DNA of 64,000 bases from Nitrosopumilaceae archaeon (GCA_965208905.1 OZ242365.1:1088001-1152000), one strand, 5' to 3'; positions 1,354 to 34,071 are shown, numbered from the stretch's first letter. Notes: a model not told the origin generated them from the letters alone. Numbers and translations: made by a program.

Positions 1354-2663
1354 CTCTCTGGATCAAACTTTGCCACAAATTCAGCTTCTTCGCGGTCTAT
1401 TCTAGATTGTATTACATCACGCAAGGCAAAGCTTGTCAAATATTTGAACATCTTTGTGTGTGCCTGCATTACAAAGAGGTGGCGCATCTGCTGACCCCCT
1501 CCCAGGCCCCAGTAACCCATGCGCAAGGCTAGAGGTTCTAAAAATACAGTATTATGTAAAGCATAATTTACATCATTAATTCTTGGATCCAAAGTATAAC
1601 TCTCCAGAGGACCACCTTTGGCAAATCCCAATATCTCACCAGTACAGTTGTTTAGGCGCAATGTGTTTAGTATAATCTCTGGATCCCGTATGGATTGTTC
1701 AAAGGATTCGGGGCTAAACTGTAGTGGTTTTGGTAGCTCGGCAAATATATCAAAGAGTGTACTAATAAATTCTGGATTATTTCGTGCCTCCATGGTCTCT
1801 ATGGTGGGTACAAATCGCAGGTTATCATATGTGTACTCTGCTTGTATCGTGATCTCTTTGGTGCGTAGATGCATAAACGACAGTACCGCATTAAAAAAAT
1901 TCTTGCGTAACTCATATGGTATGGATGATAGTACATGTTGGCACATCTTTGACTCGTTGTTAAGTAGATCCTCAAAGTATGCTACAGAGCGCCTTACAAT
2001 CAGTGATGGGTGCCAGGCTAGTGCATGTGCATTCATCTTTGCCAGTACCATAGCATGAGCAAAGTCGCCCAATGCATAGCCGCATATGCGGTCCACCACA
2101 GATAGGTACCAACCCAAATTCATATAGTGTTCCTGGAGCTCTACGTTGTCTCTAGTAAGTTCAGATGATGCAAAACACTCATCTATCTTAGCTTGTGCCA
2201 CGTCCCGGGTTTGGCCGCTCCATGGATGTGTAGTTCGAAGTATGAGCATCTTTACGATATTTAAATCGACATCAGCTTTGCGCATCATATTCAAGACATC
2301 CTTGTTGCTTGTGATAAAAGAGAGTACACTCATCTCATGGGGCTTATCCATTATTTTTAGAGGATCAAAGTCGTGAAAGAGTGCAGCGGTGTATATATGA
2401 CGAATATCCGATTTTGTAAAGTTCATCTTGTTCTTTGTGGTACATGTTGATAAAAGGGAGATGTATGTGACCGCCAGTTCATGATCTATGTTGTGATAGC
2501 CATAGTATTCTTTACCAAGGCCCATACTCTCAAACAACTCAATAGCGTAGTCTAACATATCTATAAGAGAGGGCTCCTGTAGGCCACTCTCCTGTAGTAT
2601 CTTGACAATGTTGTCACGACTTGCCAATTCTGCAGGAGTCGTAACACTAGTCAGCGGCAACAC
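1326..2663 (-). CDS. HD-domain protein with probable C-terminal GNAT-like domain
   Basis: YHNIDH...FHDFD HD motif; C-terminal ILGFAKGG...VFLEPLALRMGYWGLGGG resembles acetyl-CoA-binding motif A. Confidence 0.7.
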   Translation of the reverse strand: MLPLTSVTTPAELASRDNIVKILQESGLQEPSLIDMLDYAIELFESMGLGKEYYGYHNIDHELAVTYISLLSTCTTKNKMNFTKSDIRHIYTAALFHDFDPLKIMDKPHEMSVLSFITSNKDVLNMMRKADVDLNIVKMLILRTTHPWSGQTRDVAQAKIDECFASSELTRDNVELQEHYMNLGWYLSVVDRICGYALGDFAHAMVLAKMNAHALAWHPSLIVRRSVAYFEDLLNNESKMCQHVLSSIPYELRKNFFNAVLSFMHLRTKEITIQAEYTYDNLRFVPTIETMEARNNPEFISTLFDIFAELPKPLQFSPESFEQSIRDPEIILNTLRLNNCTGEILGFAKGGPLESYTLDPRINDVNYALHNTVFLEPLALRMGYWGLGGGQQMRHLFVMQAHTKMFKYLTSFALRDVIQSRIDREEAEFVAKFDPERWDYYRIKL

Positions 2664-2745
2664 AATTATACATTAGAATAACATATTTTTAAAAGATTAT
2701 GATTTGCCAAAAATAGATTAATGGTTATGCAGCCATGCAGATATA

Positions 2746-3330
2746 ATGCAGGGTGTAGAGTGCAGTGATGCAAATATCAATCTGGCTGCACGCATGGTGC
2801 AGCAGGGCAAAGTCATAGTCTTTCCCACTGATACTGTATACGGTATAGGATGTGACCCGTACAACATACAGGGCATAAGACGAATATACCAGATAAAGGG
2901 GCGCGATACATCAAAGTCCCTACCAGTACTGGTAAAGTCAGTGGATACAGCACAGCAGATGGCCATCATGACAGATTGTGCCAAAAGACTAGCAGAGAGA
3001 TTCTGGCCAGGACCTCTTACAATAATACTATACATGCAGAAAGACGGCCCCAAGTATGTGTCACAGAACGACAAGATAGCCGTGCGCATGCCAGATGGAC
3101 GGTGCATCCGAGAGTTATTAGATAGATGTAATTGCATAGTGGGGAGTAGCGCCAACATTTCAGGACATGGATCATCACGTACACTACAGGATATAGATGT
3201 GTCATGTGACATGGCATTAGATGGTGGTATCATACCCAAAGGTGGCGAGTCAAGTATTGTGGATGCAACAAGAGAGGATATTGTAATATTACGCCAGGGG
3301 GCCATATCAAAAGAGGACATGCTATGTTGA
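2746..3330 (+). CDS. sua5: L-threonylcarbamoyladenylate synthase (Sua5/YrdC/TsaC)
   Basis: FPTDTVYGIG, KGR, FWPGPLT, AVRMP, SSANISG, SSIVD, LRQGA motifs. Confidence 0.93.
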   Translation: MQGVECSDANINLAARMVQQGKVIVFPTDTVYGIGCDPYNIQGIRRIYQIKGRDTSKSLPVLVKSVDTAQQMAIMTDCAKRLAERFWPGPLTIILYMQKDGPKYVSQNDKIAVRMPDGRCIRELLDRCNCIVGSSANISGHGSSRTLQDIDVSCDMALDGGIIPKGGESSIVDATREDIVILRQGAISKEDMLC

Positions 3331-3839
3331 ACCTCATAGTCACATGCTTTAGACATGCAGAAGAAGATGCCATCCTAGAGATGAAAAGATTAACCGATGA
3401 TACCGTTAGTATGAAACAGACCAACATCTCGGGAGTATTGACTGGTCTGACATCTAAAGATCCAATAATGATATCACAAGGCATACAAGATATGGTCGCA
3501 GAGGAGCCATGGAGTGTTCGGTATGTACGCCGCATAATACCCATACAGAGTGTGGTAAATACCGACATTGACAGTATAATGGAAGGCATACAACATGTAC
3601 GACATCATATCACAGATGATGATACATGGCGCGTATCTATTAAAAAACGCAACACCTCATTATCAAGTCAAAAGATAATATCAGATATTGCCGGTATGAT
3701 ACCAAACAAGGTATCATTGGAGTCTCCAGATATTATTATACATGTGGAGATATTGGGCGGCATAACCGGAGTTGCAGCTCTACGGCCAGGAGATGTATTT
3801 AGTTTGGATAAAACAAAGAGATCACTATCTGAGAATTGA
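3324..3839 (+). CDS. THUMP-domain RNA-binding protein
   Basis: WRVSIKKR...KVSLESPDIIIHVEI THUMP signature; overlaps sua5 stop. Confidence 0.85.
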   Translation: MLNLIVTCFRHAEEDAILEMKRLTDDTVSMKQTNISGVLTGLTSKDPIMISQGIQDMVAEEPWSVRYVRRIIPIQSVVNTDIDSIMEGIQHVRHHITDDDTWRVSIKKRNTSLSSQKIISDIAGMIPNKVSLESPDIIIHVEILGGITGVAALRPGDVFSLDKTKRSLSEN

Positions 3840-10392: not shown

Positions 10393-10876
10393 TGCGCCTG
10401 CAGGGCGGCGGTCTTGCCGTCCACAATCTGGGCAGGCGCGATACGTCGCAGTGGCCCGTACGACTCCAAGCCTTGGCGAATCACGGCTTTAGGCATTCGA
10501 TGCCTGTCGTCTGTACCGTGCTGCACGCCGGAGACCATCGGGTCGCCGGCAGGTGCTATAGGGAGCCGAAATCGGAAGATCACTCTTTGTACTGACCAGA
10601 CTGGCAACATCATATGTTGTTTGACTCTCATAGTTTATTATTGTACAGATATGACGGGGTTGCCCAACAAGCGTATTCATGCCGCTTGCGGTCAAATCTG
10701 GGGCGGTCTGGCGCGGGTTTCTGCCCCTCCATAATGCCACATAGTGTGGTATTTTTGCCTCGCAGGAGCCTATTTTGACGGCGCAGTTGTCCGTTTAAGC
10801 AGATCATAAGCCATACATGCCTGTATATGGAGTAGTGATGCCGGTGTTCTGTGTTGTTGTACTTTGGCACAGGGAA

Positions 10877-11447
10877 TTATATACCTGGGTATGCACGCGT
10901 AACATACGCGTACATTCCTAGATGCTTCATGGCGCTTGATGTTTTGGGTCGATTGCACGCTTGATTCTCACGCCGCCGTCTGGCGTCCGGAACTGCACAA
11001 ACAGGTGGCTTCCGGGTCCGGCCCATTTCACGCCTTTCGAGGGCTATTCCTTCCCCCGCGGGAACCTCTCGTCTGGTTCCCCGTTGTATGATGTTTACCG
11101 ACGCATTGCCGTCGGCATTTGCTACATGCCCACATCCCATACACTTGAACATCTCCCCATTTCGGTTCTCCTTGGATATGTAGCCGCATATACTGCACTC
11201 CTGGCTCGTGTGTTTTGGACTTACCTCTACTACATGGATGCCCAGCCGCTCTGCGATAATGCGTATTTTTCGCAGTATTGCATAATGCCGAATAAACCGC
11301 ATACCGCGATTCAGACCTGTCTTGTGCCTGCCACCGCGCCTGCTCATGGCCTCTAAGTTGAGCTGCTCGACATATATTACATCCACGCCCTCGCATATCT
11401 TCTTGGCTAGAAGCCACTCCGCATACTCGCGGTCATTCGCATTACCC
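10877..11447 (-). pseudogene. tnpB: tnpB C-terminal fragment (RuvC-II, zinc ribbon, RuvC-III)
   Basis: VIYVEQL, TSQECSICG...FKCMGCG..NADGNASVNI; cut at the IS3 insertion. Confidence 0.9.
10891..10915 (-). other. subterminal hairpin at tnpB 3' end (candidate omegaRNA stem)
   Basis: Minus strand ATGTACGCGTA-TGT-TACGCGTGCAT, an 11-bp stem with one G-U pair, adjacent to the TIR. Confidence 0.45.
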
Positions 11448-11519
11448 TGGTGGGGACCCCGCTAGAATGAGAACACTCACGTTCATACAGCTTAAAGTCG
11501 TAATGGGAGGGATGATGCC

Positions 11520-11810
11520 ATGGTAAGAACAAAGTTTACTCCAGACCAAAAGATCCAGATCGTTTTGGAATCAATCAAGACCAATATTGGCACGGCCGAG
11601 CTGTGCCGCAAGCACAACGTTCATCCCCAAACGTTTCAAGCCTGGCGGCAAAAGTTCATGGACGCAGGCAAGTCCGGACTGACCCATCACGGAAAGAAGG
11701 ATCCGATAAAGGCCATCAAAAAGGAGAACGGCGACCTAAAGCGAATCATAGGGGATCTGACAATCGCAAACGACGCTTTAAAAAAAACCTTGGAGGCAAG
11801 CAACGATTGA
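11520..11810 (+). CDS. IS3 OrfA (HTH + leucine zipper)
   Basis: KFTPDQKIQIV...ELCRKHNV...W HTH_Tnp_1 pattern. Confidence 0.9.
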   Translation: MVRTKFTPDQKIQIVLESIKTNIGTAELCRKHNVHPQTFQAWRQKFMDAGKSGLTHHGKKDPIKAIKKENGDLKRIIGDLTIANDALKKTLEASND

Positions 11811-12637
11811 ACGCGGTAAAAATCATGCAGGAACAACATTTGAGCCTGCGCAAGTCGCTAGGGTATGCGGGCGTATCCAGGCGCCAATGGTACTACAAAC
11901 CCAAGCCCAGAGACATGGGATTGAATCCGGATATATTGAGCACTGTGCTAGATACGAGCAGAAAGAGGCCCACGTACGGCACACGGCGCATGGCGGCCCA
12001 GATAACGCGCGATACGGGAATTGTGGTGAACCGCAAGCAGATACAGCGGATATATCGCAAAATGGGCTACATCCAGCCACAAAATACCAAAAACGACATC
12101 ATTCGAGCGGGTCAAAAGCTCTTCAAACCCAAAGCCCCACACCAGTTGTGGGAGACGGACATCACATACATCTGGTGCGGTATAGACGGCTGGTGCTACT
12201 GCTTCAACGTAATTGACTGCTTTACGCGCAAGTGGATCGCCTACGCGTTTGATGTCAATGCCACACGAGACATTGCAATCACCTCAATCACCAACGCGGT
12301 TGCCGCAGAGAAACCTGACTGCTCACAATTACGATTGCGTACGGACAACGGCAACCAGTATACGAGCCGCGACTTTAGACATGCGGTTCAGGCCCTTGGC
12401 ATCGGCAAACATGAATTCATCTACAAGAATACGCCGGAGCAGAACGGACATGTCGAATCATTTCACAAGACGCTGAAAAAGGAATACATCTGGCCGCACG
12501 AGTTTGCGAACTATCAGGAGGCAGAGACGATCATTGCAAAGGCCTTTGTAGATTACAACACCGAGAGGATTCATTCCTCTATCGGATACATGACACCAGT
12601 AGAATTTGCCGAACAGTTGGAGATGACAAATAAATGA
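11780..12637 (+). CDS. IS3 OrfB DDE integrase, joined to OrfA by a -1 frameshift
   Basis: WETDITY, RTDNG.QY, NGHVESF..LK.E; slippery TTTAAAAAAAAC at 11777-11788. Confidence 0.9.
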   Translation, partial: KKNLGGKQRLNAVKIMQEQHLSLRKSLGYAGVSRRQWYYKPKPRDMGLNPDILSTVLDTSRKRPTYGTRRMAAQITRDTGIVVNRKQIQRIYRKMGYIQPQNTKNDIIRAGQKLFKPKAPHQLWETDITYIWCGIDGWCYCFNVIDCFTRKWIAYAFDVNATRDIAITSITNAVAAEKPDCSQLRLRTDNGNQYTSRDFRHAVQALGIGKHEFIYKNTPEQNGHVESFHKTLKKEYIWPHEFANYQEAETIIAKAFVDYNTERIHSSIGYMTPVEFAEQLEMTNK

Positions 12638-12694
12638 TGGAAGATGTATGTAAAATCATGCCGAAAACAGTAACATTCTATGGGGTCCACTCCA

Positions 12695-12769
12695 ACCCCG
12701 GTTGTACTTTTCTCGTTTATGTTTAATTTTACGTGTTGAGTTTGAGTGTTTGTTGTGGTGCGATATGGT
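12695..12769 (-). pseudogene. tnpB: tnpB middle fragment
   Basis: Encodes TISHHNKHSNSTRKIKHKREKYNRG, in frame with both other fragments once the TSDs are collapsed. Confidence 0.85.
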
Positions 12770-12942
12770 GGGACTGGGAAGAAATGCTGACCTAGGGAAA
12801 GTGCTGACCCGAAGTGGGAAGAAATGCTGACCTGACCTATATTTCCACTCCGACCCCAATTTCCACTCCGCTAATTTGACCAATGTTTCCACTCCAGACA
12901 TGAACTACCCTAATGTTGAATAAAAGATGAAAAATATACTAC

Positions 12943-14328
12943 TTATTTTTGCTTGGCCTTGGCAGCAGCCTGTATGAGAGTCATCCACTTGTTATCACCC
13001 TGTACAATTATACCGGCGGCCTCTGCCGGAGTCTGGTTATCTGATAATCCAAGGTGTGAACGCACAAAGTTATGATATAACTTCAAACCTGTTATGATAC
13101 CCGAATCCTCGCGCTTTAGACCGCGCGTTACCTTCTCACGGTGACGTAACGTGTTCCCATTGAACGACTCCATCTGGTTGTTGTGATGTATGCCATCAAA
13201 CGCGACATCGTTTACATGTTGGGTTTCTTTGTGCAGAAAGTTCTTGGCTTTGTATTGTCTCTTCCATGCATTGTGGAAGTTTGTAGCACCGTCTGATATC
13301 AGGGTATCCGGAACCTTGCCTGCTATACATTTGGCCTGCTTGAACATTGGAGCCACATCATCATTGCCCTTATGTTCAGCCACCATCTTTGAAATCCAGT
13401 ATCTTGTATCTGAATCCAACATGGCAAACAAGTATCGCTTGTTGCCCTTAATTTTCAAGTGCAGCTCATCCGTTCTCCATTCCTCTCCGACCTGTAGTTG
13501 TATTGTATCAACATAGGACTCCATTAGTTTGGCGTAGGTAGCGGCCCAATTCTGTATGGTTCTGTAGGTTATCTTGGGGCCGTTCTGCCCCAACTGTCTT
13601 GCCACCTTCCTGGATGACAATCCACTAAAGTACATTCCTACTGCCGTACAGATGTCATCCGGCGTGGTATGCTTCATCTCAAAGCCAAGGTTCTGAATGA
13701 ATCGTCTCCCACATGTTTTGCAGCCGTACTGCTGTTTCTTGCGACACTTGCCCTTCTTGATGATATTAGTAGAGTCACAGAACTTGCATCTGGTGTGATC
13801 ATGCGGCTGTATTATACGCCGTTCACCATTATGCCACTGGACTGCTTGAATGTGTTTGCATGTACTCCCTGTATGTATGTGGTCCGGGCATGAACACATC
13901 CACCCGCTACCGAAATTACGCACCTCGTATGATTCATCAGTACTCTGTGATTTGACTAGATAGTGGTCGTGCGATATACGTTCTACCTGATTATTGGCCT
14001 GATGTATCATCATGCCGCGGTCAGCACGCGCCTTTGCGCCAAGATGCTCTTCTAATGCATATGCATGCTTGCAATATATCGCATCATCAGGACATGTACA
14101 GTTCCAGCTTCGGGCTGTCCGTGTCAACGTATACTTGACGCATGGTTCAGTCTGTGAACACACCTCGTATGTAGAATCATCTACTTGACGAATCTGATTC
14201 TTTTGTTTTGTTATCAATATGCCTCGTTGTTTTCTGTAATTCATTTGCATGGTAGCGTATCGGCACCATTTAAGGCGGTAAAAGTCAATCTTGAGGTATA
14301 GGAGTACTCCTGTGAACGCTGTGGGCAT
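12943..14328 (-). CDS. IS6-like DDE transposase with two N-terminal SWIM zinc fingers and a C4 zinc ribbon
   Basis: CTCPD..YCKH and CSCPD..TCKH (SWIM); CKFC..CKTC; HTH; WRTDE, LISDG, NNQMESF triad; true start probably 14250 or 14244. Confidence 0.88.
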   Translation of the reverse strand: MPTAFTGVLLYLKIDFYRLKWCRYATMQMNYRKQRGILITKQKNQIRQVDDSTYEVCSQTEPCVKYTLTRTARSWNCTCPDDAIYCKHAYALEEHLGAKARADRGMMIHQANNQVERISHDHYLVKSQSTDESYEVRNFGSGWMCSCPDHIHTGSTCKHIQAVQWHNGERRIIQPHDHTRCKFCDSTNIIKKGKCRKKQQYGCKTCGRRFIQNLGFEMKHTTPDDICTAVGMYFSGLSSRKVARQLGQNGPKITYRTIQNWAATYAKLMESYVDTIQLQVGEEWRTDELHLKIKGNKRYLFAMLDSDTRYWISKMVAEHKGNDDVAPMFKQAKCIAGKVPDTLISDGATNFHNAWKRQYKAKNFLHKETQHVNDVAFDGIHHNNQMESFNGNTLRHREKVTRGLKREDSGIITGLKLYHNFVRSHLGLSDNQTPAEAAGIIVQGDNKWMTLIQAAAKAKQK

Positions 14329-14777
14329 ACATAAAATGGACTATCTGGCAACTCCACGGGTTGTAAGGGACTGGGAAGAAACGCTGACCCAGAGTCGAAA
14401 TGGAGGTCTTGTACGATTAGGAGTGCGGAGTGGAAATTGTACGTCTGGGGCGGAAACATAGGTCAAATCACTACGCGCTATTTTGGGGCACACGCTATAT
14501 TTGGGACAGTTCAAAGAGTGGTCCACTCAACATCCCGTGAAAACCGAGCTATGACTATCATCTTTGAGGAGTGCTTGAGTCCAGAGATAACATGACAGTA
14601 GTGTGTGTACTGGCCGGAGGGAGGCTGTAAAAACCAGTCCTATAAAGGGGCCTAGACTAGAAATGGCATAAGGTGTGTGGTAGGTGCATGAGGTCAGTTT
14701 TAGTGAACTGAGTATAAGGCTATGTACCATCATTTTCTGTCTTAAACATTGAAATTAACGATAAACGTTCGTGACAT

Positions 14778-15255
14778 ATGCGAGGCTATTATGCGATACA
14801 GGTTTGTATGAATGGGCATGTTATCACTGATCGGCATAGGTGGGACGACGTCGAATATTGTACAGAATGTGGGGAGAAGACAATAATCAAATGTCAAAAT
14901 CAAAGCTGTGGTGAGGAGATACGTGGTGAGTCAACTACCCCCTCCAATTTCCCGCTCGCTGTAGGTTGGCCCAGCACCAAATAACTGTCATAAATGTGGA
15001 GAACCATACCCTTGGACACGGGATAAGATCGAAGCACTTCAGAAGTTGATAGAGTTGTCATCTCTGGACAAGGAACACAAAAAATACGTGTTGGATGAGG
15101 TTGTACACATCATAAGTGAAACACCAAAGACCAAAATCATTTGTGATGTATTTAAGAAAATCATTCCTGAAGATGAATCATCGATTTGGTCTGTACTCAT
15201 AGAGGTGGCTACACAGAAGGCAAAGGACATTCTAACCGGCGTGTCACCGACATAG
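14778..15255 (+). pseudogene. DUF2321-like Zn-ribbon protein, one frameshift
   Basis: QVCMNGHVIT..YCTECG..C..CG.EIRG in one frame continues as CHKCGEPYPWT in the next; removing 1 nt near 14940-14975 gives about 158 aa. Confidence 0.7.
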
Positions 15256-15322
15256 ATGGCAATTTACATGAAACCATCCAGATTTCCACAATGGGAGCCA
15301 AGAAAAGAGTAGCCTTTGTTAA

Positions 15323-18274
15323 TCATCCTTCCAAATCTTTCCGACCCAAATGCTTCTCATGTACCAACCAATCGTATATCTGTTCTAAGTTGTCCACACT
15401 CAATCCCAATATATCCGAAACACGCCTGTCAATCTCTTGTCGCACCTTATCACTATCCACCATATTGATGGGCTTCATCTCCTTTTTACAAAGGTCATCG
15501 AAAACCCCATCCAACTGTGTGATGATGTGTTCGTCCATGCTAGCAAAATCCGGCACAGGCATTTGTCTGCATGACGTTAGTGTCATCAAGCCACGTTCAG
15601 TTTGCTGTGAGTTGGATACGAACCAATATGTGAGTATTCCAAAGATTGAGTTAAACCATACCATAAACGCTTTTTCATGATTACTATCATTCAGTCTGAC
15701 GTTGGGCCATGCACTACCACCAACTGTCTCCATCTCCGTATATGCGGCAATCAATCGTTGGGAGGTATACCGAACATACAGGTTGATGTGTGTATGTGTT
15801 CTTGTATCCCAAACATTGTTTACCTGTTCCTTTGTTGCATCTTGTTTTTTCTCTAATGAATAATCCGGAGGCACAACCATAATTCGTTGTGTTTTAGCAT
15901 CATTTCCCCACAAACACTGGTATCTTTGTCTGCGCCCGTATCTGATTTTTATAAAAGGACCCTGCGGAGTACCATCATGTTTGGTTCCAATTATGTCAAG
16001 GTGATGTTTCCCCATGTACGATATTTCTCCAATAGTAGTCATTTCAATACCCAACCCACCATTTATCAGACTGTATGCAGTCTGTAAGAGAAATATGTTT
16101 GATGTTCTGGTCAACATCCATCGTCCATCTTCCACAGTACAGTCTAACATATCGCCAACATGTGTGTCTCCTAAAACAAGTGACGTTCCACCCATGCAAT
16201 GCTCAATTCTATTGGCCGGTGTTTTTCGTATGATTTTTGCAACCTCCAACCCTCCAAGACGTGACGTAGGTAGTTTATTGAGCAATACAAATTTAATTCT
16301 GGGAAATTGCCCTTCTGGCCACTTGGTTGTTCTTTTACGGGCTATCAATACCACCTCCTCCATTCCTGTACCGGCAGAGAAGGTCAACTCATCAGTTCCT
16401 GCTGAACGACGCAGTCTGACTACTGTTATGTCATCGTACCATTGGTTCAATACTTCACGTATGTCTGACCATGCCGAACCAGAAGTCATGGTAGCTGGCA
16501 GTATGAAGCCCATCACACCACCTGGTTTTAGTTTCCGATGGGTGATTGCAATAAAGTATGATGCCAGACCGGCATGTCCATGAGATCCGGTTTCGCAGAA
16601 GAGGTTAGCGTTGGTTTTTCCCATATCACTCTGTATATCCGGCGGTATACCAAATACAGCAAAAGGAGGAACCGGGTCGGTTCGTCCACTGCCGTGGTTT
16701 GTAGCCTTTACGAATGGTGGATTCATGAGTACAAAATCAAACGATTCAGAACGAAGCCTCACACTCGTAAGATTCTGTCCGCCTTGTCCACCATGTCTTT
16801 TACCAACATCTCCAGATAGTGCCTCTATCTCAAGGCTTATGGAGTCTTCACTAATTTCTGAATCTACATCTCTAATAAGATCCAACGAGCCCAATGAACG
16901 AACAGGTTTACGAGGCCGTGTCTTTACCGGCATCGGTGTCCCTATTGGCATCTGGTATATTCTGGCTTCTTTGAATATGTTCGCGGGATATAACACAGCC
17001 AAGTTGGAAACTGTCAAATGTGTTGCGGTCGGCATTATATCAAAACCCCACAATACATCAGCCATTACTGTGGGGTGCATCTTTGCAATATTCTCGTCAT
17101 TGGCATGACAATGTATTATGTGGTTATATGCGGCGGTCAGCAACATGCCGGTGCCACACGCAAAGTCAGCTATGCGGAGTTTCTCTATGCGAGATTTATC
17201 ATTCCAAATTTTATCACTTATCGGGGGCAATACAAGTTCGGCTAAAAGTGTAGCAGCTTCAGGTCTAGTATAGAATGAGGCCGATTTTTTTCGTTCAATT
17301 AGGTCATTCTGATATAATGCACCATATACATCGCCAGAATTCTGCATGCCGAGACTCATTACAACTGAGACTGTTTGAATTATCACATCTATAATGACAG
17401 ATGCAGATCGTTCCGGTATCACATTAAACAGGTCGCGTGTAATCTCAAAGACTGGACCATAATTGATGTCCAATACAGATTCCATACCATTCATGATGTC
17501 ATATTTGGTGGGCTTGTTTGTCAGAGAACCAATGGATGTAAGTGTCTTTATTTCGTCTAGATGTGAAGATAGTTCTTCATAAAAGATACTTCCATTGAGT
17601 AGCATCAACGCGGCCATAGACATAGCTTGTCTGTCACTCATACCATACAGGGTGTCAGTACTCTTGTTATAGCCCAACAAACTGATTATCTCTGACTTGA
17701 CACCGTTGTCAGCATCAACCAATGTATTGGCTATACTGTTTATCTGCTTCTGAATAATTTCTGTATACTCATCTTCAACATTGCGTGATACTATGGAAAG
17801 GCGTGTCGCCGTTATAACATCGGTTATGTTCCCCCTTAGGTATCCGTTGGTGGGAAATCTGTTGGTGCGGTCATGTACAAAATATTCCAGCTCGGAACTA
17901 CCAAACTTTGTTCGAAAGTCATCCGCGTCATCTGCATGCGCAAGCTCGTCGGGGAACAGCACCCCGACTATGGCTGACGGTGTGATGTTACCTTCCTCCA
18001 ACGTTACTTCTAAACGGTCGCCGACCTCCCGCTCCAGATTGCTCCTGTCTGTCTCCAACTCAATAATTACGGCTTGGTTTACGCTTCCTGTCCCCTTTGG
18101 TCGCACTATGATGTCAGGTCGCTTGCCGTGTTTACCAGAGACGGTCCGTGTCCTCTCGGCCTTTGCAGTACACCAGCCACTGTCATTTATGACCTCTGCT
18201 ACCCAGGGGTTGATTGCAGACTCTACGGCCCGGCCACCACGACGCGTTATGGGAAGCAACCTCCGTCCGGCCAC
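15323..18274 (-). CDS. Type IIG-like fused restriction endonuclease/amino-methyltransferase
   Basis: N-terminal RPDII..IIELE nuclease motif; FYTRPE, IADFACGTG (motif I), MNPPF (motif IV); C-terminal TRD-like region. Confidence 0.85.
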   Translation of the reverse strand: MAGRRLLPITRRGGRAVESAINPWVAEVINDSGWCTAKAERTRTVSGKHGKRPDIIVRPKGTGSVNQAVIIELETDRSNLEREVGDRLEVTLEEGNITPSAIVGVLFPDELAHADDADDFRTKFGSSELEYFVHDRTNRFPTNGYLRGNITDVITATRLSIVSRNVEDEYTEIIQKQINSIANTLVDADNGVKSEIISLLGYNKSTDTLYGMSDRQAMSMAALMLLNGSIFYEELSSHLDEIKTLTSIGSLTNKPTKYDIMNGMESVLDINYGPVFEITRDLFNVIPERSASVIIDVIIQTVSVVMSLGMQNSGDVYGALYQNDLIERKKSASFYTRPEAATLLAELVLPPISDKIWNDKSRIEKLRIADFACGTGMLLTAAYNHIIHCHANDENIAKMHPTVMADVLWGFDIMPTATHLTVSNLAVLYPANIFKEARIYQMPIGTPMPVKTRPRKPVRSLGSLDLIRDVDSEISEDSISLEIEALSGDVGKRHGGQGGQNLTSVRLRSESFDFVLMNPPFVKATNHGSGRTDPVPPFAVFGIPPDIQSDMGKTNANLFCETGSHGHAGLASYFIAITHRKLKPGGVMGFILPATMTSGSAWSDIREVLNQWYDDITVVRLRRSAGTDELTFSAGTGMEEVVLIARKRTTKWPEGQFPRIKFVLLNKLPTSRLGGLEVAKIIRKTPANRIEHCMGGTSLVLGDTHVGDMLDCTVEDGRWMLTRTSNIFLLQTAYSLINGGLGIEMTTIGEISYMGKHHLDIIGTKHDGTPQGPFIKIRYGRRQRYQCLWGNDAKTQRIMVVPPDYSLEKKQDATKEQVNNVWDTRTHTHINLYVRYTSQRLIAAYTEMETVGGSAWPNVRLNDSNHEKAFMVWFNSIFGILTYWFVSNSQQTERGLMTLTSCRQMPVPDFASMDEHIITQLDGVFDDLCKKEMKPINMVDSDKVRQEIDRRVSDILGLSVDNLEQIYDWLVHEKHLGRKDLEG

Positions 18275-18623
18275 CTCTTTGCAGTATTAAATCTACCAAA
18301 TGTTTTGTAGCTTGCTTTATAGTGCCAATAGACGCACCACAACCGTGATGATTGCCCACCGCTAGTTGTTCGTGCCGCCAAGCACTGTTCGTGCCGCCAA
18401 GCACTGTTCGTGCCGCCAAGCACTGTTCAGCTTCCAAGGTCTGCGAGCACCCTCTCTGCATTAAGAGAATGTCTATCCTTGACTGCGTCTCCCCAATTTC
18501 CAACACCGTCGCCTTTCTCTTGGATTCAATCTTTGATGCCAGCCCACAGTAGATAGCCCGATGCTGGCCTTGTTTATGCCGGATAATGTTGCCCTTGATG
18601 GTCTTGAAGTTGATGGAACTCAT
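18183..18623 (-). CDS. hypothetical protein containing a 19-bp tandem repeat
   Basis: ATG-started ORF upstream of and co-directional with the RM gene; its C-terminus depends on repeat number. Confidence 0.4.
   Translation of the reverse strand: MSSINFKTIKGNIIRHKQGQHRAIYCGLASKIESKRKATVLEIGETQSRIDILLMQRGCSQTLEAEQCLAARTVLGGTNSAWRHEQLAVGNHHGCGASIGTIKQATKHLVDLILQRGGRTEVASHNASWWPGRRVCNQPLGSRGHK
18367..18428. repeat. 19-bp tandem repeat x3.3
   Basis: (TGTTCGTGCCGCCAAGCAC)x3 + TGTTC, perfect copies. Confidence 0.95.
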
Positions 18624-18935
18624 ATAGAAAATATAGACGATCTGTTAATAAGGTTATACGAACAGCCGCCTCCAAACTCAGTGTTGTAAGAACTTTTAAC
18701 CTAACTGAACTATTAAAATTATGATCTGGAATTGTCCTGACCTATGTTTCCGCCTCAGACCAACATTTCCACTCCGCTAAAACATACCTCGTTTCCACTC
18801 CGCACGCCTGATGTATAACTAATGTACTCCAACTACTATTTCCAGTCTAGGCACCACTTTGGGACAGGCGCCATTAATGGGACAGTCCACACAATCAATC
18901 CCCTTTTAATATAATGTCGTTTTGATAACCACATT

Positions 18936-19454
18936 GTGGACTGGTACGCGGAGATTTTACCATCAATTATGTCAGCATCGATAGCGATTGCCATAATAAC
19001 TACACTTGTGCTAGCAAGGAAGGACAAGAAACGCGAGTGCCGCGAGAGGCAAGCTACGGAGGTAAAGATGCTGCTTGATGCACACATGAACTTATGGAGT
19101 GGCCTGCGGCAGATGGAGGCGCATGCTGCTGGTATACCTGATAGGAATAAGCAGTCGGGTAGTCACGCCCTGTTGGTAGACGACTTCAAGTGGCTTCGCG
19201 ACGTATTACGCAACGAGTCGCTCATGTTGGCGCCCGAGATACATGATGAATACGTCAAGTTTCTCAAAGAACCCCTGAAGCAGGCAATGTTTGGCCTCGG
19301 CAGCTATATCCCCGCTAGCTCTCACATATATGGTGCGTCAGATACACCGTACTTGGCTAACCTCTCCAAAATGCAGCAAATAGCCGAGAAGCAGTGGAAG
19401 AAGTATGAGTCCGAATACCGCATGCTTGGTGGAAAGTATCCGCACGCCAGATGA
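18936..19454 (+). CDS. hypothetical protein with N-terminal TM helix
   Basis: 172-aa ORF with hydrophobic segment SIMSASIAIAIITTLVLA followed by basic residues. Confidence 0.65.
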   Translation: MDWYAEILPSIMSASIAIAIITTLVLARKDKKRECRERQATEVKMLLDAHMNLWSGLRQMEAHAAGIPDRNKQSGSHALLVDDFKWLRDVLRNESLMLAPEIHDEYVKFLKEPLKQAMFGLGSYIPASSHIYGASDTPYLANLSKMQQIAEKQWKKYESEYRMLGGKYPHAR

Positions 19455-19476
19455 TCTTCCAATACCTCAACCCACA

Positions 19477-20430
19477 TTACGCCTCAACAGTAGGATAGTC
19501 AACATACTCGAACTTCAGCGACTCTATCATGGCCTTGGCCTCCTCAACACATTCAAACTTGGGCGAACACACCAGATAACCTATACCGCGCCTCTCCTCC
19601 GTAAACCCGCCTTGGCCGACCCGAAGGGCTATGACACACCGGTTCTCCGGCAGATGAAGTCCCCACTCTTTTGGTATGAATATACTCCACGGCTGCTGCC
19701 AGTGTTCCATGTATGCAACAACCACTCCCGGGCGGTACCTGCGCATCTGCCCCATCTTGCGCGTCAGGGTGTGGAAGTTGGCATCGGCATCGTCTCCCCT
19801 ACCTCCGTATTTTGTGACGTACTTCATTTTGGGGCGGTACTTGCCCGGATCAATGCAGAACTCGCCCCCCACATACACACCGCGCTTCATGGTACATGCC
19901 TCTTCGTATGCAAGCGGACCAGTGCCGTACCAAACCTCTACGTCCCACCTGTTGTTGTTCATGTCTTCAATGTCAATGTCAAATGTATGTTTGTTGTCAC
20001 AGTCCATATGTTCCACCTCGATGTCCACTATTCGGAATCCTGCCTCGTAGAACCACTTGGTGACGCGCGCCTGAACTGCAATCCCGCCCCCATCACTGCC
20101 TGTCTGCAAGCGATCCAACTCCCTGTCGACATCGCCCCGCAACTCGTAGATGTTTTGGGCCGTCTCAAATTTCCGCATCAGGTTGGGGTGTAGCCGGCGC
20201 AATTCGTCAATGTCGGGTGCATCCTGCCGCTCCAATATGTGTCGCAGGGTTCGTGTTCGACACAACTGTCCACGGTAGTCCGTGATCTGTTTTGTGATGG
20301 AATCGTACTTCTTGGCTTGGCCCTCCCGGCAAATATTGGACTGGTTTGTCTTCCACCACTCCAGCAACTCGTCCAACGTTTTGAGGCCCGCGCATGGGTC
20401 AAATTTTGCCATGCTCTGTTCCCGATGCAC
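19477..20430 (-). CDS. hypothetical protein, possible PD-(D/E)XK-fold nuclease
   Basis: 317-aa ORF; GFRIVDIE..FDIDIED..WDVEVW pattern resembles a restriction-endonuclease core. Confidence 0.55.
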   Translation of the reverse strand: MHREQSMAKFDPCAGLKTLDELLEWWKTNQSNICREGQAKKYDSITKQITDYRGQLCRTRTLRHILERQDAPDIDELRRLHPNLMRKFETAQNIYELRGDVDRELDRLQTGSDGGGIAVQARVTKWFYEAGFRIVDIEVEHMDCDNKHTFDIDIEDMNNNRWDVEVWYGTGPLAYEEACTMKRGVYVGGEFCIDPGKYRPKMKYVTKYGGRGDDADANFHTLTRKMGQMRRYRPGVVVAYMEHWQQPWSIFIPKEWGLHLPENRCVIALRVGQGGFTEERRGIGYLVCSPKFECVEEAKAMIESLKFEYVDYPTVEA

Positions 20431-20652
20431 ATCTTCTATTAAGGTTTAGCTTTGACCTGAACTGTCCCAAAGTGGTGCCTAGACTAGATATAGGGCCATG
20501 TTTAGTGGAGGGGAGATTATACGTCTAAGGTGGAAACGTAGGTCACCAACTTTCCAATTCTGGGTCAGTGTTTCTTACCAGTCCAGATTATGATGTGTAG
20601 TGTTTGTCCAAATAACACCCGGAATTCAGAAAAACCACGTCACCCGCAGATA

Positions 20653-21555
20653 TTAGGTTCGGCGCTTCCCAGTCTTACATTGTTTAAGTTTCAGCAGCAG
20701 TCTTTTAATATCCTTCTCATCTCTTACAGGCGCATAGTAGTTGCCCGTACCGTGGTGGCCAGGATCGGATACATCCTTTACAAATTCATCTTCCGTAAAA
20801 TCACCCTTCCGACCAAAATAGACTTTGATCTTACTACGCTGAACTATCGCGGTGCATAGTAGATACTCACCATCACGCCCAAATCCGACATAGTATTTCG
20901 TTGGCAATTCCTTTACTCCTGAGAATGTAGAGAGCATCCTATCACGAAGTGTCTTGTATAGTGGGTTTTTGGATTCATGTGGATTGGTGTTCGAAGTTCG
21001 TTCTTGCTCTGTGTTGGTTTCAAGTATTTTAGGTGTAGTCTTTACGGCCGTATCTATTGGACCGCGTTTACCAGCTATATACCTCAGTGTCACAATCCCA
21101 TTTTCAAACTTCCTTAACTCATACAGGCATTCATTATCTTTTTTACCCGCAGCGTATATCTGATCCTTGTTAAACTCTGGTGCGACGATTATTGCATAGA
21201 TGTTATTCCACTTGAATGAATTCGGATCCTCATGGGCGTTATACGATTTATTGTATGCCAGAGTCAGTGTAGCGCGATTATCATCCATCTTATTGAGATA
21301 GTTTTCGGCCTGCTGGCGAACCGTATCAGAACGCCTGTTCTTGTACTCGATTGCTACAAAAGTATGGGCTTGGGGGTCATATACAACCGTATCTGGAATT
21401 TTGTCTGATATTTGCATCTTACTTTTGACCAACTTTAGATTTGGAAATAGTATGTGTAGATTATCTTCGAACCACTTGTGTTGTTTACTCTCGTCGGGAA
21501 AGTTAACATCGTCCAACTCACAACATCCTTTGGTGGATGTGTAGAATGTACGCAT
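20653..21555 (-). CDS. NucS-like PD-(D/E)XK nuclease fused to DUF5655-like domain
   Basis: E...W.E.NL..LF, PDTV..FVAIEYK..QA..Y, IIVAPEF; C-terminal TKYYVGF..DVS..GH.GTG. Confidence 0.72.
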   Translation of the reverse strand: MRTFYTSTKGCCELDDVNFPDESKQHKWFEDNLHILFPNLKLVKSKMQISDKIPDTVVYDPQAHTFVAIEYKNRRSDTVRQQAENYLNKMDDNRATLTLAYNKSYNAHEDPNSFKWNNIYAIIVAPEFNKDQIYAAGKKDNECLYELRKFENGIVTLRYIAGKRGPIDTAVKTTPKILETNTEQERTSNTNPHESKNPLYKTLRDRMLSTFSGVKELPTKYYVGFGRDGEYLLCTAIVQRSKIKVYFGRKGDFTEDEFVKDVSDPGHHGTGNYYAPVRDEKDIKRLLLKLKQCKTGKRRT

Positions 21556-21752
21556 ACGTTTTTGGTATAATGGCGATATTTAATATTGTTGTAAATGTGA
21601 AGTCATGCCTGGACTAGTAATGTAGGTATGCAACCACCATTTCTACTCCGCTAAAACAGATCTCATTTCCAGTCCGGACGCCTGATGTATAAAGACCTGC
21701 GTTTCCAGTCCGGGTCAGTACTTTCCCTAGGTCAGCATTTCTTCCCAGTTCC

Positions 21753-22456
21753 GATATGGTACGGCGCGTCTCATCATTCCATGTACGGTTCGTGCGGAAT
21801 GCGGTTGCTGTATCGTATGATGTGATATTTGAGGTGTTATGGTCTGTCTTGCACACGACGGTCGGATTTGTTATCCCCCTGTCTATGCCGGCAACAACCC
21901 CGGTCTTGGCGCACCGTTCGGGTGCCGGTACGTCATATGTTATGTGTAGCCGGTAGATATGGTCACACGACTTGACATGCACCCACGACTTTGGTGTAAC
22001 CTGCACCAAACGGAAAGACCTGGCGCCATACAGCCAGTTGTGTGGAAATTGATATGACTGCTCCTCGCACAACTCAACAACACCAAGGCCCGGCAATGAC
22101 GCGTGCCTGTTGTCCACATATACAGGCTGCACATCACATGATACTGCCTTTGTATTATCGCGCTTTCTGGAGCGGAAACTTAGTTTGCCGTTGCCGTATT
22201 TGTTCGAGACATCCGCAGCAGTGCGGGCTTGGTGTATGGCAGTATTTTGGTATATACGCTCTACTGTTTGCAGCCACTGCACGGAACGCCTCATCTTGGT
22301 GAACTCCCTGGAGAGATCATATGTAGTGAGTGTGGGGTTAGTAAGCAGCCGCTCCACGGCCCAGTTGTACACGAACCGCTGTGAGTCCCGTATTTTAGAT
22401 ATGTGACGCGCCTGAGAGCGTGTCAGGTCTATGCGGAAACCATAAGACCGATACAT
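21753..22456 (-). pseudogene. tnpB: tnpB N-terminal fragment (HTH, RuvC-I)
   Basis: MYRSYGFRI..RFVYNW, FRSRK, LPGLG, AGIDRG; reads into the 9-kb transposon TIR after RRTIS. Confidence 0.88.
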
Positions 22457-22581
22457 GTAGTTTTATACACTATAATACTTTATAAATATGTATCCTACAG
22501 GACTTGCCTTGCCTGCCCAGGCATATAATTCCCTTGGCACATGTAGATGGATTTAATATTCATAATACAACAAGAGCATCA

Positions 22582-31496: not shown

Positions 31497-34071
31497 GCTC
31501 ATTGGTACGATAATACCAATAAATGATATATCAAAGGGTGGAGCCGCAGAGAAGAAGAGGGGTCGCGGTAGAATCAACAACTTACATCGGTGGTGGGCTT
31601 CGCGGCCTACTACAGTATCCCGCATCACAGCATATGCAGCACTGGTTGATCCGCCAATAGAAGAACATAAGAAAATGATACTAGACATGTGCGACTATGA
31701 TAATACAACCAAACCCGAACGGATAGCAGTACGGGATGCCGCGCGCAAGCGAATCAAAGAAAAGTGGGAAAATCCTCCAAAGGTGCTGGATCCGTTCGGC
31801 GGCACGGGGGCGCTGCCGTTCAGCGCCGCGTGGCTGGGCTGTGAATCACATTCTATGGATTACAATCCTGTTGCTGTTATATTACAAAAGTGCGCGTTGG
31901 AGTATCCGACCAGGTACGGGCATGAACTCAAGGAAGATGTCATGCGGTATGCGAAACAAGTTGGCGAGCTGTTGAAGGAGCGTACCACGCCTTATTATCC
32001 GGGCGAGTCGCACTACGGGTATATCTGGTGCCGGACAATCCGGTGTAAGTGCGGGTGTATAATCCCACTTATACACGACTACACACTCTCAAAAAGTTAT
32101 GGTATGCATTTCCGGCCCGCTGCGCGAGACGGCGAGGTTGAATTCACCATACACGACAAGGGTGAGATACCTCCCGGTCAGGTGGGAGGTAGGCGGGCCA
32201 TATGTGTAAACTGTGGACACACGTACACCAACATAGAGATACGAGACATGGTATGGGACCACGGCTCGGAGATGATGTGTGTTGCCACATCCGTACCAAA
32301 GCGAGGGAGGAGTAAGTCGTATAGGTCGGTTGATGCGGATGACCGGACACTGTATGAGTCATGCGCCGCGCAGCTGAAAGAGTGTCGTGCGCAGTTTCGC
32401 GAGAAATATGACATAGACCCAATACCTGACATCGTCATCCCCATGCCAGACGGCCTGGAGTATAGGCCGGGTGGACCGGTATGGCATGTCTTGCGCATAG
32501 CTACGTTTGGCCACACCCGTTGGTCGCAACTCTTCAACAACCGGCAGCTACTGTGCATGGTGATACTATTGGATATACTGCGCGAGATCGAGGCGGACGT
32601 AATAAAGAATCACGGCATGGAGCGCGGCATTGCCATAATGACTTACCTTGGGCTAATGATGGACAAGACTCTGGAAAGGTACTGTAGATTGTCACCTTGG
32701 CTAACAGATAGTGGCAGAGTCACACATTGCTTCTCCCAACAAAATCTACGTAACACGTGGGACTATCCGGAGGTTGCCCCCCACATATTATGGGGGCAGT
32801 CAATCACCCATATTTCGGACGGCATGAACGCGGCCCTCTCCAACAACACCGTATGCGACGTGCGACGGGCCTCGGCCACCAACCTACCATATGATGACTG
32901 TACATTCGATGCCGTATGCACGGACCCGCCGTATTATGATGCCATGCAGTACTCATACACGTCCGACTTCTATGTGTGGCTGAAGCGCTCCATTGGACAT
33001 TTACACCCTGAATTATTCCGCGGCACGCATACTCCAAAGAAAAACGAGGTGATTGAGACAGAAAGCCTGGCCATGCATATAACACCGGAATGTAAGGTGC
33101 GAGACAGTGATGGCTATCAACAGCTAATGTCACGGTCACTACACGAGATGCATCGTGTGTTGAAACCAGATGGTATACTCACATTAGTATACGCGCATAA
33201 GACCACTGAGGGTTGGGAGACCCTCATCAAATCAATATTAGAGGCGGGATTCACGATAACAGCGGCCTGGCCGGTCGATACTGAGAGTTCATCCCGCATG
33301 AAATCCCGTGGTACGGCAGCCCTTGCCTCATCAATATACATGGTGGGCCGTAAGTGGGAGCGCAAACCGGTAGCCGAGTGGCGCACAGTACAGTTAGAGT
33401 TCCGCGAGCATGTGTGCGCCATGCTGGACAGGCTCATCAAGGCAAACATAACGGGCTCGGACTTTTACATTGCGGCCATCGGGTCCGCTCTGGAGATATT
33501 CGGTAAGTATAAGGCGGTGCGAAGAAGTAATGGCGAGCAAATCACTATAGACGAAATACTTGATGAGATACGCACCCTGTGCTCGGAGTTCATAGTAAAG
33601 ATGCTCACACAGGGTGGTGGCGGAAACATAGATCCGCTAACCAAGCTCTACATAACGTGGCGGTGGGCGTACGGCAATCAAAAAATACACTTTGATGTTG
33701 CGCGAAAGTTGTTCACCGGTGTGGGACGAGACATGGACGAATATTCGGGCAAGGGTGGTATAATACGGCGCAAAGGCAGTGAAGTAAAGCTGCTGACGCA
33801 TCAGGAGCGCGATGAAGAGATACGTATCAAGAGCCGCATAGATGCCATACATCAGGCCATCCGCTACTGGCACGCCAACAAGCTTGACGACATGAAGGAG
33901 ATATTGCGCGAGACTGGCAATATAGGCGATGTGTTCAATGCCGTCTGCAAGGCGATTGCAAGGGCCGGGAATGGAGAGACAGATGAAGCGAGGGAGATCG
34001 ACCAGTTCCGTTCAGGGCGAGAAGAAGAGATAAACGAACCTGTGGGGCAGCTAAGGATGACTGATTACTGA
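31477..34071 (+). CDS. DUF1156-family DNA adenine methyltransferase
   Basis: LHRWWASRP, DPFGGTG, DYNPVA, Zn ribbon, LFNNRQL, TDPPYY, YAHK..GW. Confidence 0.9.
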   Translation: MTAGTNRLIGTIIPINDISKGGAAEKKRGRGRINNLHRWWASRPTTVSRITAYAALVDPPIEEHKKMILDMCDYDNTTKPERIAVRDAARKRIKEKWENPPKVLDPFGGTGALPFSAAWLGCESHSMDYNPVAVILQKCALEYPTRYGHELKEDVMRYAKQVGELLKERTTPYYPGESHYGYIWCRTIRCKCGCIIPLIHDYTLSKSYGMHFRPAARDGEVEFTIHDKGEIPPGQVGGRRAICVNCGHTYTNIEIRDMVWDHGSEMMCVATSVPKRGRSKSYRSVDADDRTLYESCAAQLKECRAQFREKYDIDPIPDIVIPMPDGLEYRPGGPVWHVLRIATFGHTRWSQLFNNRQLLCMVILLDILREIEADVIKNHGMERGIAIMTYLGLMMDKTLERYCRLSPWLTDSGRVTHCFSQQNLRNTWDYPEVAPHILWGQSITHISDGMNAALSNNTVCDVRRASATNLPYDDCTFDAVCTDPPYYDAMQYSYTSDFYVWLKRSIGHLHPELFRGTHTPKKNEVIETESLAMHITPECKVRDSDGYQQLMSRSLHEMHRVLKPDGILTLVYAHKTTEGWETLIKSILEAGFTITAAWPVDTESSSRMKSRGTAALASSIYMVGRKWERKPVAEWRTVQLEFREHVCAMLDRLIKANITGSDFYIAAIGSALEIFGKYKAVRRSNGEQITIDEILDEIRTLCSEFIVKMLTQGGGGNIDPLTKLYITWRWAYGNQKIHFDVARKLFTGVGRDMDEYSGKGGIIRRKGSEVKLLTHQERDEEIRIKSRIDAIHQAIRYWHANKLDDMKEILRETGNIGDVFNAVCKAIARAGNGETDEAREIDQFRSGREEEINEPVGQLRMTDY

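Follow-up and report, generated by a model that had tools for sequence, protein, structure and literature searches.

The 64,000-nucleotide stretch of DNA analysed here (GCA_965208905.1 OZ242365.1:1088001-1152000, from a Nitrosopumilaceae archaeon), which is referred to below as the window, contains an interrupted tnpB gene that is enclosed by terminal inverted repeats (TIRs). The TIR pattern GGGAATTATAT(A/G)CCTGGG has exactly two matches in the window, one at 10872-10889 on the plus strand and one at 22516-22533 on the minus strand, with 0.09 matches expected by chance and two matches found in none of 100 shuffled sequences. Read on the minus strand, which carries tnpB, the right-end TIR (10872-10889) is GGGAATTATATACCTGGG and the left-end TIR (22516-22533) is GGGAATTATATGCCTGGG. 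Both of these repeats are adjoined by an 8-bp direct repeat, TTGGCACA, which was read from the sequence as a target site duplication (TSD) at 10864-10871, on the right-end side in tnpB orientation, and at 22534-22541, on the left-end side.

The tnpB gene is present between these ends in three pieces, all on the minus strand. The N-terminal piece (21753-22456; Pfam and BLAST) begins with an ATG at 22454-22456 and holds the HTH_OrfB_IS605 domain and the start of the OrfB_IS605/RuvC domain, the middle piece (12695-12769; BLAST) lies between two insertions, and the C-terminal piece (10877-11447) holds the TNB zinc-ribbon domain (PF07282, E 1.8e-18), RuvC-III and the tail. By window span, Pfam places HTH_OrfB_IS605 and OrfB_IS605 in 21614-22456 and the TNB zinc ribbon in 10877-11386. 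The stop codon of tnpB (10877-10879) lies inside the right-end TIR, the window open reading frame (ORF) starting at 10877, and the same arrangement is seen at locus L001, where the ORF occupies 2078-3415 and the element ends at 3420. A TATA-box-like sequence, TTTATAAAG (22478-22486, minus strand), whose centre lies 26 nt upstream of the start codon, is kept by all copies of the element; it resembles an archaeal promoter from which tnpB would be expressed as a leaderless mRNA.

Comparison by BLAST of an intact genomic copy with the window divides the window copy into three colinear pieces (viz. 10872-11446, 12695-12769, and 21753-22533), whose overlaps are those expected from target duplications. 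When both insertions are removed by script, a unit of 1420 bp with one open frame of 447 codons is obtained, and its length is that of three intact copies present elsewhere in the genome. The pattern count, the BLAST comparison, the script and the ORF coordinates thus agree with a preliminary description of the locus, made from the sequence alone, in which inverted repeats, an 8-bp duplication, a 1420-bp unit holding only tnpB after removal of two nested insertions, and a tnpB stop codon within one TIR had been reported. The window segment 10872-22533 represents one copy of a non-autonomous 1420-bp transposon with tnpB as its sole gene, into which an IS3 element and a SWIM-DDE transposon later inserted.

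The host genome, which is one contig of 2.21 Mb and 99.6% complete, contains three intact 1420-bp copies of this element (352058-353477, 553922-555341, and 2062478-2063897), with TSDs that match at 7/8, 6/8 and 8/8 positions, respectively. A sister subfamily of four copies encodes proteins that are 87-90% identical and has a variant left end; its 8-bp TSDs are perfect in all four. For the two subfamilies together, with the window copy included, TSDs are perfect in six of the eight copies, and one copy each has 7/8 and 6/8 matches. Our automated scan for ends and TSDs gave no match or a spurious one at three sister-subfamily loci of the host genome. The element is therefore, as had been suggested, a multicopy non-autonomous TIR element with tnpB as its sole gene and with a separate duplication at each insertion.

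Searches with the protein sequence identified relatives at 56-67% protein identity in five of nine other genomes of the genus; the 141 genomes searched from 26 further genera of the family yielded no relative. Ends of the GGGAATTAT type together with a TSD of at least 6/8 were found at 18 of the 23 scanned loci from these five congeners, and likewise at two loci of a named Nitrosopumilaceae metagenome-assembled genome (MAG); the TSD is perfect in 15 of these 20 loci combined. Copy-to-copy alignment resolved four loci that the scan had missed and revealed terminal GGGAATTAT in each of them, the TSD matching at 8/8 positions in three loci and at 7/8 in the fourth. The source names of the homologues are those of Nitrosopumilaceae, including sponge-associated Cenarchaeum MAGs.

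The TnpB zinc-ribbon model has 75 matches in the 2.2 Mb of the host genome. Y1 TnpA (PF01797) has no match in this genome, the control being positive in 6 of 14 genomes, and serine recombinases or resolvases (PF00239) likewise have no match, with a positive control in 12 of 14 genomes. The other copies of the window element keep their ends and TSDs and occur in a genome lacking matches to either TnpA-type model, whereas the preliminary description had held that copies without TIR and TSD, or copies beside a Y1 or serine TnpA, would speak against its view. Among 74 scanned TnpB loci of all kinds, 35 have both a TIR (at least 11/14 matches) and an 8-bp TSD (at least 7/8), and they fall into at least six TIR classes.

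One of these classes, a second one in which tnpB is the only gene, has GGTTCCTCCCGCAAAGTCGG ends (the GGTTCC class) and 8-bp TSDs and comprises two subfamilies, with examples at 240813, 329623 and 872874 (1608-1644 bp) and at 29114, 443078 and 1678958 (1513-1516 bp). Its ends recall what we take to be IS6-type TIRs, and no autonomous partner for it was found in the host genome. We also observed that two 1639-bp tnpB elements (1455264-1456902 and 2049469-2051107) have swapped flanks, with TAATTTCC on the left of one and on the right of the other, as would be expected if recombination between the two copies had inverted the segment of ~594 kb that separates them.

The terminal sequences of the tnpB element point to a family of DDE transposases encoded elsewhere in the same genome. 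The host genome contains four full-length genes for IS1595-family transposases that combine PF12762 with the PF12760 zinc ribbon, and all four lie in elements (2131, 2131, 2690, and 2837 bp) that start with GGGAATTATA and have perfect 8-bp TSDs. The end of the tnpB element, GGGAATTATA(TAC), is the end of these four IS1595-family elements. The 2690-bp and 2837-bp elements have 13 terminal nucleotides, GGGAATTATATAC, in common with the window element, and the same 13 nucleotides are also common to a tnpB-only family of ~1466 bp, whose protein is only 32% identical to that of the window family, to the 1639-bp tnpB family, and to MITE-like elements of 45-430 bp. Ends of the GGGAATTAT type flank 27 of the 74 TnpB loci examined, the window copy being included in this tally. 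ISNwi1-type ends ('ggnnatTAT'), 8-bp TSDs and passenger genes are features that we take to be traits of the IS1595 family (ISfinder, Siguier et al. 2009). As a side observation on passengers, the IS1595 elements L006 (1770047-1772736) and L007 (1043578-1046414) carry a fusion of a DNA methylase and an HNH nuclease, which is split in L006 and intact in L007.

The strongest evidence for the IS1595 link comes from two composite elements in congeners. In the first (L060; 2562 bp), a TIR is followed by a tnpB gene whose product is 59% identical to that of the window family, an IS1595 transposase gene and a second TIR, with the outer TSD CCGGTATC on both sides. In the second (L061; 2509 bp), from another congener, 6 nt separate a complete tnpB element from the complete IS1595 element that follows it, and GGGTCTAG flanks the unit on either side as the outer TSD. 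In both composites the flanks at the inner junction do not match, and this combination of a single outer TSD with mismatched inner flanks suggests that the right end of the tnpB element was used, jointly with an IS1595 end, in transposition. IS1595 transposases are present in eight of the nine congeners. On the basis of these shared termini and composites, we consider it highly likely that the DDE transposase of the four other host-genome elements, which is of the IS1595 family, mobilised the window element in trans.

The mobiliser favoured in the preliminary description was an IS6-like transposase acting in trans, possibly from the family with SWIM and IS240-type DDE domains that is seen twice in the window. 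Genes of this family are abundant, with 13 genome matches above the Pfam cut-off, two of them in the window; the SWIM-DDE transposon of the window also has an 8-bp TSD and starts with GGGA, and the GGTTCCTCCCGCAAAGTCGG ends of another TnpB class in this genome bring to mind TIRs that we presume to be of IS6 type. The SWIM-DDE ends (GGGACTGGGAAG...) have only these 4 terminal nucleotides, GGGA, in common with the TIR of the tnpB element, however, as against 10-13 for the IS1595 elements, which share GGGAATTATA, and the composites of both congeners join tnpB to an IS1595 transposase and not to a SWIM-DDE gene. None of 12 scanned SWIM-DDE loci lies within GGGAATTAT ends; these loci gave only low-scoring, unconvincing pairs, and no link of SWIM-DDE genes to any TnpB TIR class could be established from them. 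An IS6-like mobiliser of the window element is very improbable in the light of this evidence.

A different possibility is that no separate transposase is involved and that TnpB itself, or some mechanism not of the DDE type, produces insertions with TIRs and TSDs. Such a proposal could draw on the facts that most TnpB elements of the host genome are without an adjacent transposase and that the GGTTCC class lacks an autonomous partner there. Exact inverted ends together with a duplication of 8 bp are, however, characteristic of DDE strand transfer, elements encoding the IS1595 transposase have these same termini, and TnpB is not known to join DNA. We regard this explanation as very improbable indeed.

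The TnpB protein of the family has the domain composition of a canonical TnpB. An intact copy matches PF12323 (E 2.8e-6), PF01385 (E 9.1e-8) and PF07282 (E 1.6e-17), and the same domains occur in the window pieces. Translation and alignment to Cas12f/TnpB chains place the RuvC D, E and D residues in the motifs GIDRG, VEQLN and NADGNAS, the glutamate being assigned by eye where the HMMER register is off by one, and the zinc finger CSVCG..CLKC is also present. For codons 1-372, the ratio of non-synonymous to synonymous differences (pN/pS) is 0.17-0.25 in all 10 copy pairs. TnpB is thus under purifying selection, as judged from these comparisons, while the copies diverged, and it looks functional.

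The last part of the element differs from the gene body in its pattern of divergence. A conserved 3' module (10872-11111, minus strand) overlaps the tnpB tail and is a candidate omegaRNA scaffold, in which a 7-bp stem involving the inner TIR surrounds an 11-bp hairpin. Synonymous divergence in the last ~200 nt is 0-0.10 in the six pairs without the window copy and 0.14-0.20 in the four pairs with it, compared with 0.24-0.32 in the gene body. Across species, the mean column identity of the module is 84%, and the corresponding proteins are 57-67% identical. The tail of ~70 codons, which had been described as non-conserved, is in fact the best-conserved part of the element at the DNA level; the 11-bp hairpin reported just inside the TIR does reappear as a stem in the minimum free energy fold, where it lies within the 7-bp stem and the inner TIR (CCCAGGT) pairs with an upstream ACCTGGG. 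The inner TIRs of the two subfamilies differ, and each is paired, in a register of its own, with that one upstream ACCTGGG segment. The fold of the module from one copy has z = -2.8, with one of 200 shuffles folding as well, and the RNAalifold consensus contains 52 pairs. Rfam reported tRNAs only, and no known RNA family over the elements. Contigs from two RNA-library runs of one study (X19 and X20) cover tnpB and the 3' module, and one X19 contig crosses the TIR of the sister subfamily and stops 2 nt into the flank; these contigs, in which strand and ends are not resolvable and a DNA origin is possible, are at most a hint of transcription. Taken as a whole, the module would look like an omegaRNA scaffold that reaches into the TIR.

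The explanation that we consider likely overall is that of a tnpB element with IS1595-type ends, mobilised in trans, that carries a 3' omegaRNA module. The element brings no transposase of its own and carries tnpB with its own TATA-like promoter in the left end, and an IS1595-family DDE transposase supplied by other elements would move it in trans and generate the 8-bp duplication. The 3' module of ~200 nt, which overlaps the end of the gene and enters the right TIR, would act as the omegaRNA scaffold, and transcription passing through the TIR would yield a guide that starts with the TSD, here TGTGCCAAAGTAC.... With such a guide, TnpB could cleave the site when it is empty or has been precisely repaired, and the element would be regained by recombination with a chromosome copy that is still occupied. 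Restoration of an element by TnpB cutting and recombination has been shown for IS605 TnpB.

The flanks of related families were examined in relation to such a guide, with all flanks oriented by tnpB for the motif census. In the ~1466-bp family with GGGAATTATATAC ends (e.g. 33496-34967, locus L004; 102957-104422; and 339644-341109), all 14 copies have a G directly 5' of the left TSD, and at position -11 ten of them have T and four have A. In the GGTTCC-ended subfamily of ~1515 bp, TT occupies -11/-10 in 6/6 copies and G occupies -9 in 4/6, and in that of ~1615 bp, TA occupies -10/-9 in 8/8. The mirrored positions on the right side show no signal in any of these three sister families, and hence the left-flank motifs are not palindromic target preferences. 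They are TAM-like (transposon-associated motif) sequences, situated where a TAM would be if the guide consisted of the TSD and the flank, and the TAMs predicted from them are TNG, TTG and (A/T)TA, each immediately 5' of the target. A related family from another species has G at -9 in 3 of 4 copies. A weak AT-rich, TATA-like patch at -27 to -19 from the left end (~1 bit per position) was also noted in the eight insertions of the window family and its sister subfamily, and may simply reflect a preference for intergenic sites.

Several observations weigh against this explanation or parts of it. The autonomous element with the same TIR that had been sought was recovered in part, in that four IS1595 elements share the terminal 10-13 nt, but these are the only nucleotides in common and the inner TIR differs, and recognition of the tnpB-element ends by the IS1595 transposase is deduced from the common termini and the composites. 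The covariation in the fold is thin, with compensatory double changes in only 4 of the 52 pairs, because the module sequence is so conserved, and part of the 3' conservation could come from DNA bound by the transposase or from gene conversion. Evidence at the RNA level is limited to the library contigs, which carry no end or strand information. A scan of metagenome contigs with 22 nt of the left flank gave no match to the empty site. In the eight copies of the window family and its sister subfamily, no informative position was found at -12 to -9 or elsewhere within 40 nt, and the relatives of the window family likewise lack a TAM-like motif next to the TSD, so that empty-site cleavage is only a prediction for the window family. 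The earlier proposal that the guide begins with the TSD (TGTGCCAAAGTAC...) consequently stands with respect to its geometry, which appears right by analogy and from the motifs of the three sister families, and lacks a counterpart of those motifs in the window family's eight copies.

These results also bear on whether the IS1595-type ends and mobiliser might be retained while TnpB and its RNA do something other than donor-site homing, as a pure hitchhiker, with another target (e.g. one specified by a TIR-proximal sequence), or as a regulator. Apart from the missing TAM-like motif in the eight copies and their relatives, where the sister families have one, this alternative gains from an argument made in a 2026 review (PMC13565253), viz. 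that the DDE cut already breaks the donor site, which makes the benefit of homing less obvious. It has to contend with the purifying selection on TnpB and its intact catalytic residues, with a 3' module whose conservation extends to the very edge of the TIR, as is seen where guides derive from the flank, and with the homing-type geometry of sister families that have the same ends; moreover, eight copies provide little power to detect a short or degenerate TAM. We consider a role other than homing unlikely, though a serious alternative. As for the homing part of the mechanism in the window family itself, our judgement is close to evenly balanced and inclines slightly against it.

At the level of the genus, a more tentative proposal, which we put somewhat below an even chance, is that the TnpB-omegaRNA module has left its Y1 and serine partners and may now be the standard cargo of transposase-less DDE shells, with IS1595-type ends and at least two other TIR classes. 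The TIR would lie within the omegaRNA scaffold, the guide would be taken from the variable 8-bp duplication, and the TAMs of the subfamilies would be found directly outside the left duplication. If this is true, RNA-guided homing, or survival of insertions that depends on a TAM, works for cut-and-paste elements with non-specific targets.

Both insertions within the window copy are themselves bounded mobile elements. The IS3-family element (11448-12694, plus strand; Pfam HTH_Tnp_1 and rve, ends read from the sequence) encodes orfA and orfB and is flanked by the TSD ACCC at 11444-11447 and 12695-12698. The second insertion is a transposon of 8983 bp (12770-21752) with the TIR GGGACTGGGAAGAAATGCTGACC and the TSD GATATGGT at 12762-12769 and 21753-21760; its genes include the SWIM and IS240-type DDE transposase (12943-14328, minus strand) and an Eco57I-like type IIG restriction-modification gene (15323-18274, minus strand). 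This transposon also encodes a DUF5655 protein. Several motifs recur in its subterminal regions, and its end sequences are found again further inward, at 14367 and 20584, which suggests that elements are nested within it. Inside it, at 18367-18428, a 19-nt unit (TGTTCGTGCCGCCAAGCAC) occurs as three perfect copies in tandem. The second SWIM-DDE gene of the window lies near 43109-43492.

The host genome provides a compact natural test bed, with one candidate transposase family, dozens of tnpB-only shells and several subfamilies, and the congener composites, which carry both genes, and the predicted guides and TAMs are suited to cleavage and transposition assays. What a DDE cut-and-paste transposon gains from an RNA-guided nuclease is debated, and the payoff is discussed in the review cited above (PMC13565253). 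For annotation, the label 'IS200/IS605 family TnpB' can mask elements that are mechanistically of IS1595.

With respect to known systems, the element resembles the IS200/IS605 family (IS1341 group, with tnpB only) and the IS607 family in its canonical TnpB (PF12323, PF01385, PF07282) and in the conserved RNA-like 3' module at its right end. These families have neither TIRs nor TSDs (PMC13565253), whereas the window family and its sister subfamily have 18-bp TIRs and 8-bp TSDs in 8/8 host-genome copies and occur in a genome without Y1 or serine TnpA. With the IS1595 family it shares the GGGAATTAT termini and the 8-bp TSD, the same ends bounding elements with PF12762 and PF12760, some of which have passenger genes; it differs from them in that it has no transposase gene and tnpB is its only gene.

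The closest prokaryotic parallel is provided by Altae-Tran et al. (2023, PNAS; PMC10691335), who describe six TnpB branches (DDE-1 to DDE-6) linked to DDE transposases, all with inverted terminal repeats, and solo TnpBs with nearly identical ends, implying mobilisation in trans. As in those branches, tnpB lies here within an inverted-terminal-repeat transposon, with its 3' end no more than 250 bp from the transposon end, and copies without a transposase have the same ends as elements that encode one. IS1595 is not mentioned in the main text of PMC10691335 and may be among its six branches; PMC13565253 names ISL2, IS630 and IS1031 as the DDE partners of TnpB and calls such associations rare in prokaryotes, and, judged by titles and the openings of abstracts, none of the 9 papers listed by a full-text search is about an association of TnpB with IS1595. 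The architecture (viz. DDE-linked TnpB, inverted ends, and mobilisation in trans) is thus already published in outline since 2023, and novelty may lie in IS1595 as a partner, in Y1 and serine partners being replaced throughout a genome, and in the pattern of a TAM beside the TSD in sister families. Unlike in the DDE-associated branches, solo elements are here the norm in a genome that has 75 TnpB matches, and in the sister families a variable 8-bp TSD is adjoined by TAM-like motifs.

A parallel with Fanzors carried by DDE transposons had also been drawn in the preliminary description, and it is a fair one, although the prokaryotic counterpart has already been published (PMC10691335). In the Fanzor transposons of eukaryotes and their viruses with TIRs and TSDs (Yoon et al. 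2023; PMC10711439), a TnpB-type nuclease is likewise the sole gene of a non-autonomous cut-and-paste element, and the guide RNA reaches the boundary of TIR and TSD, an arrangement that in the window family is a prediction. The present element differs from those transposons in its archaeal host, in a variable 8-bp TSD in place of a short fixed motif, and in encoding an ordinary TnpB.

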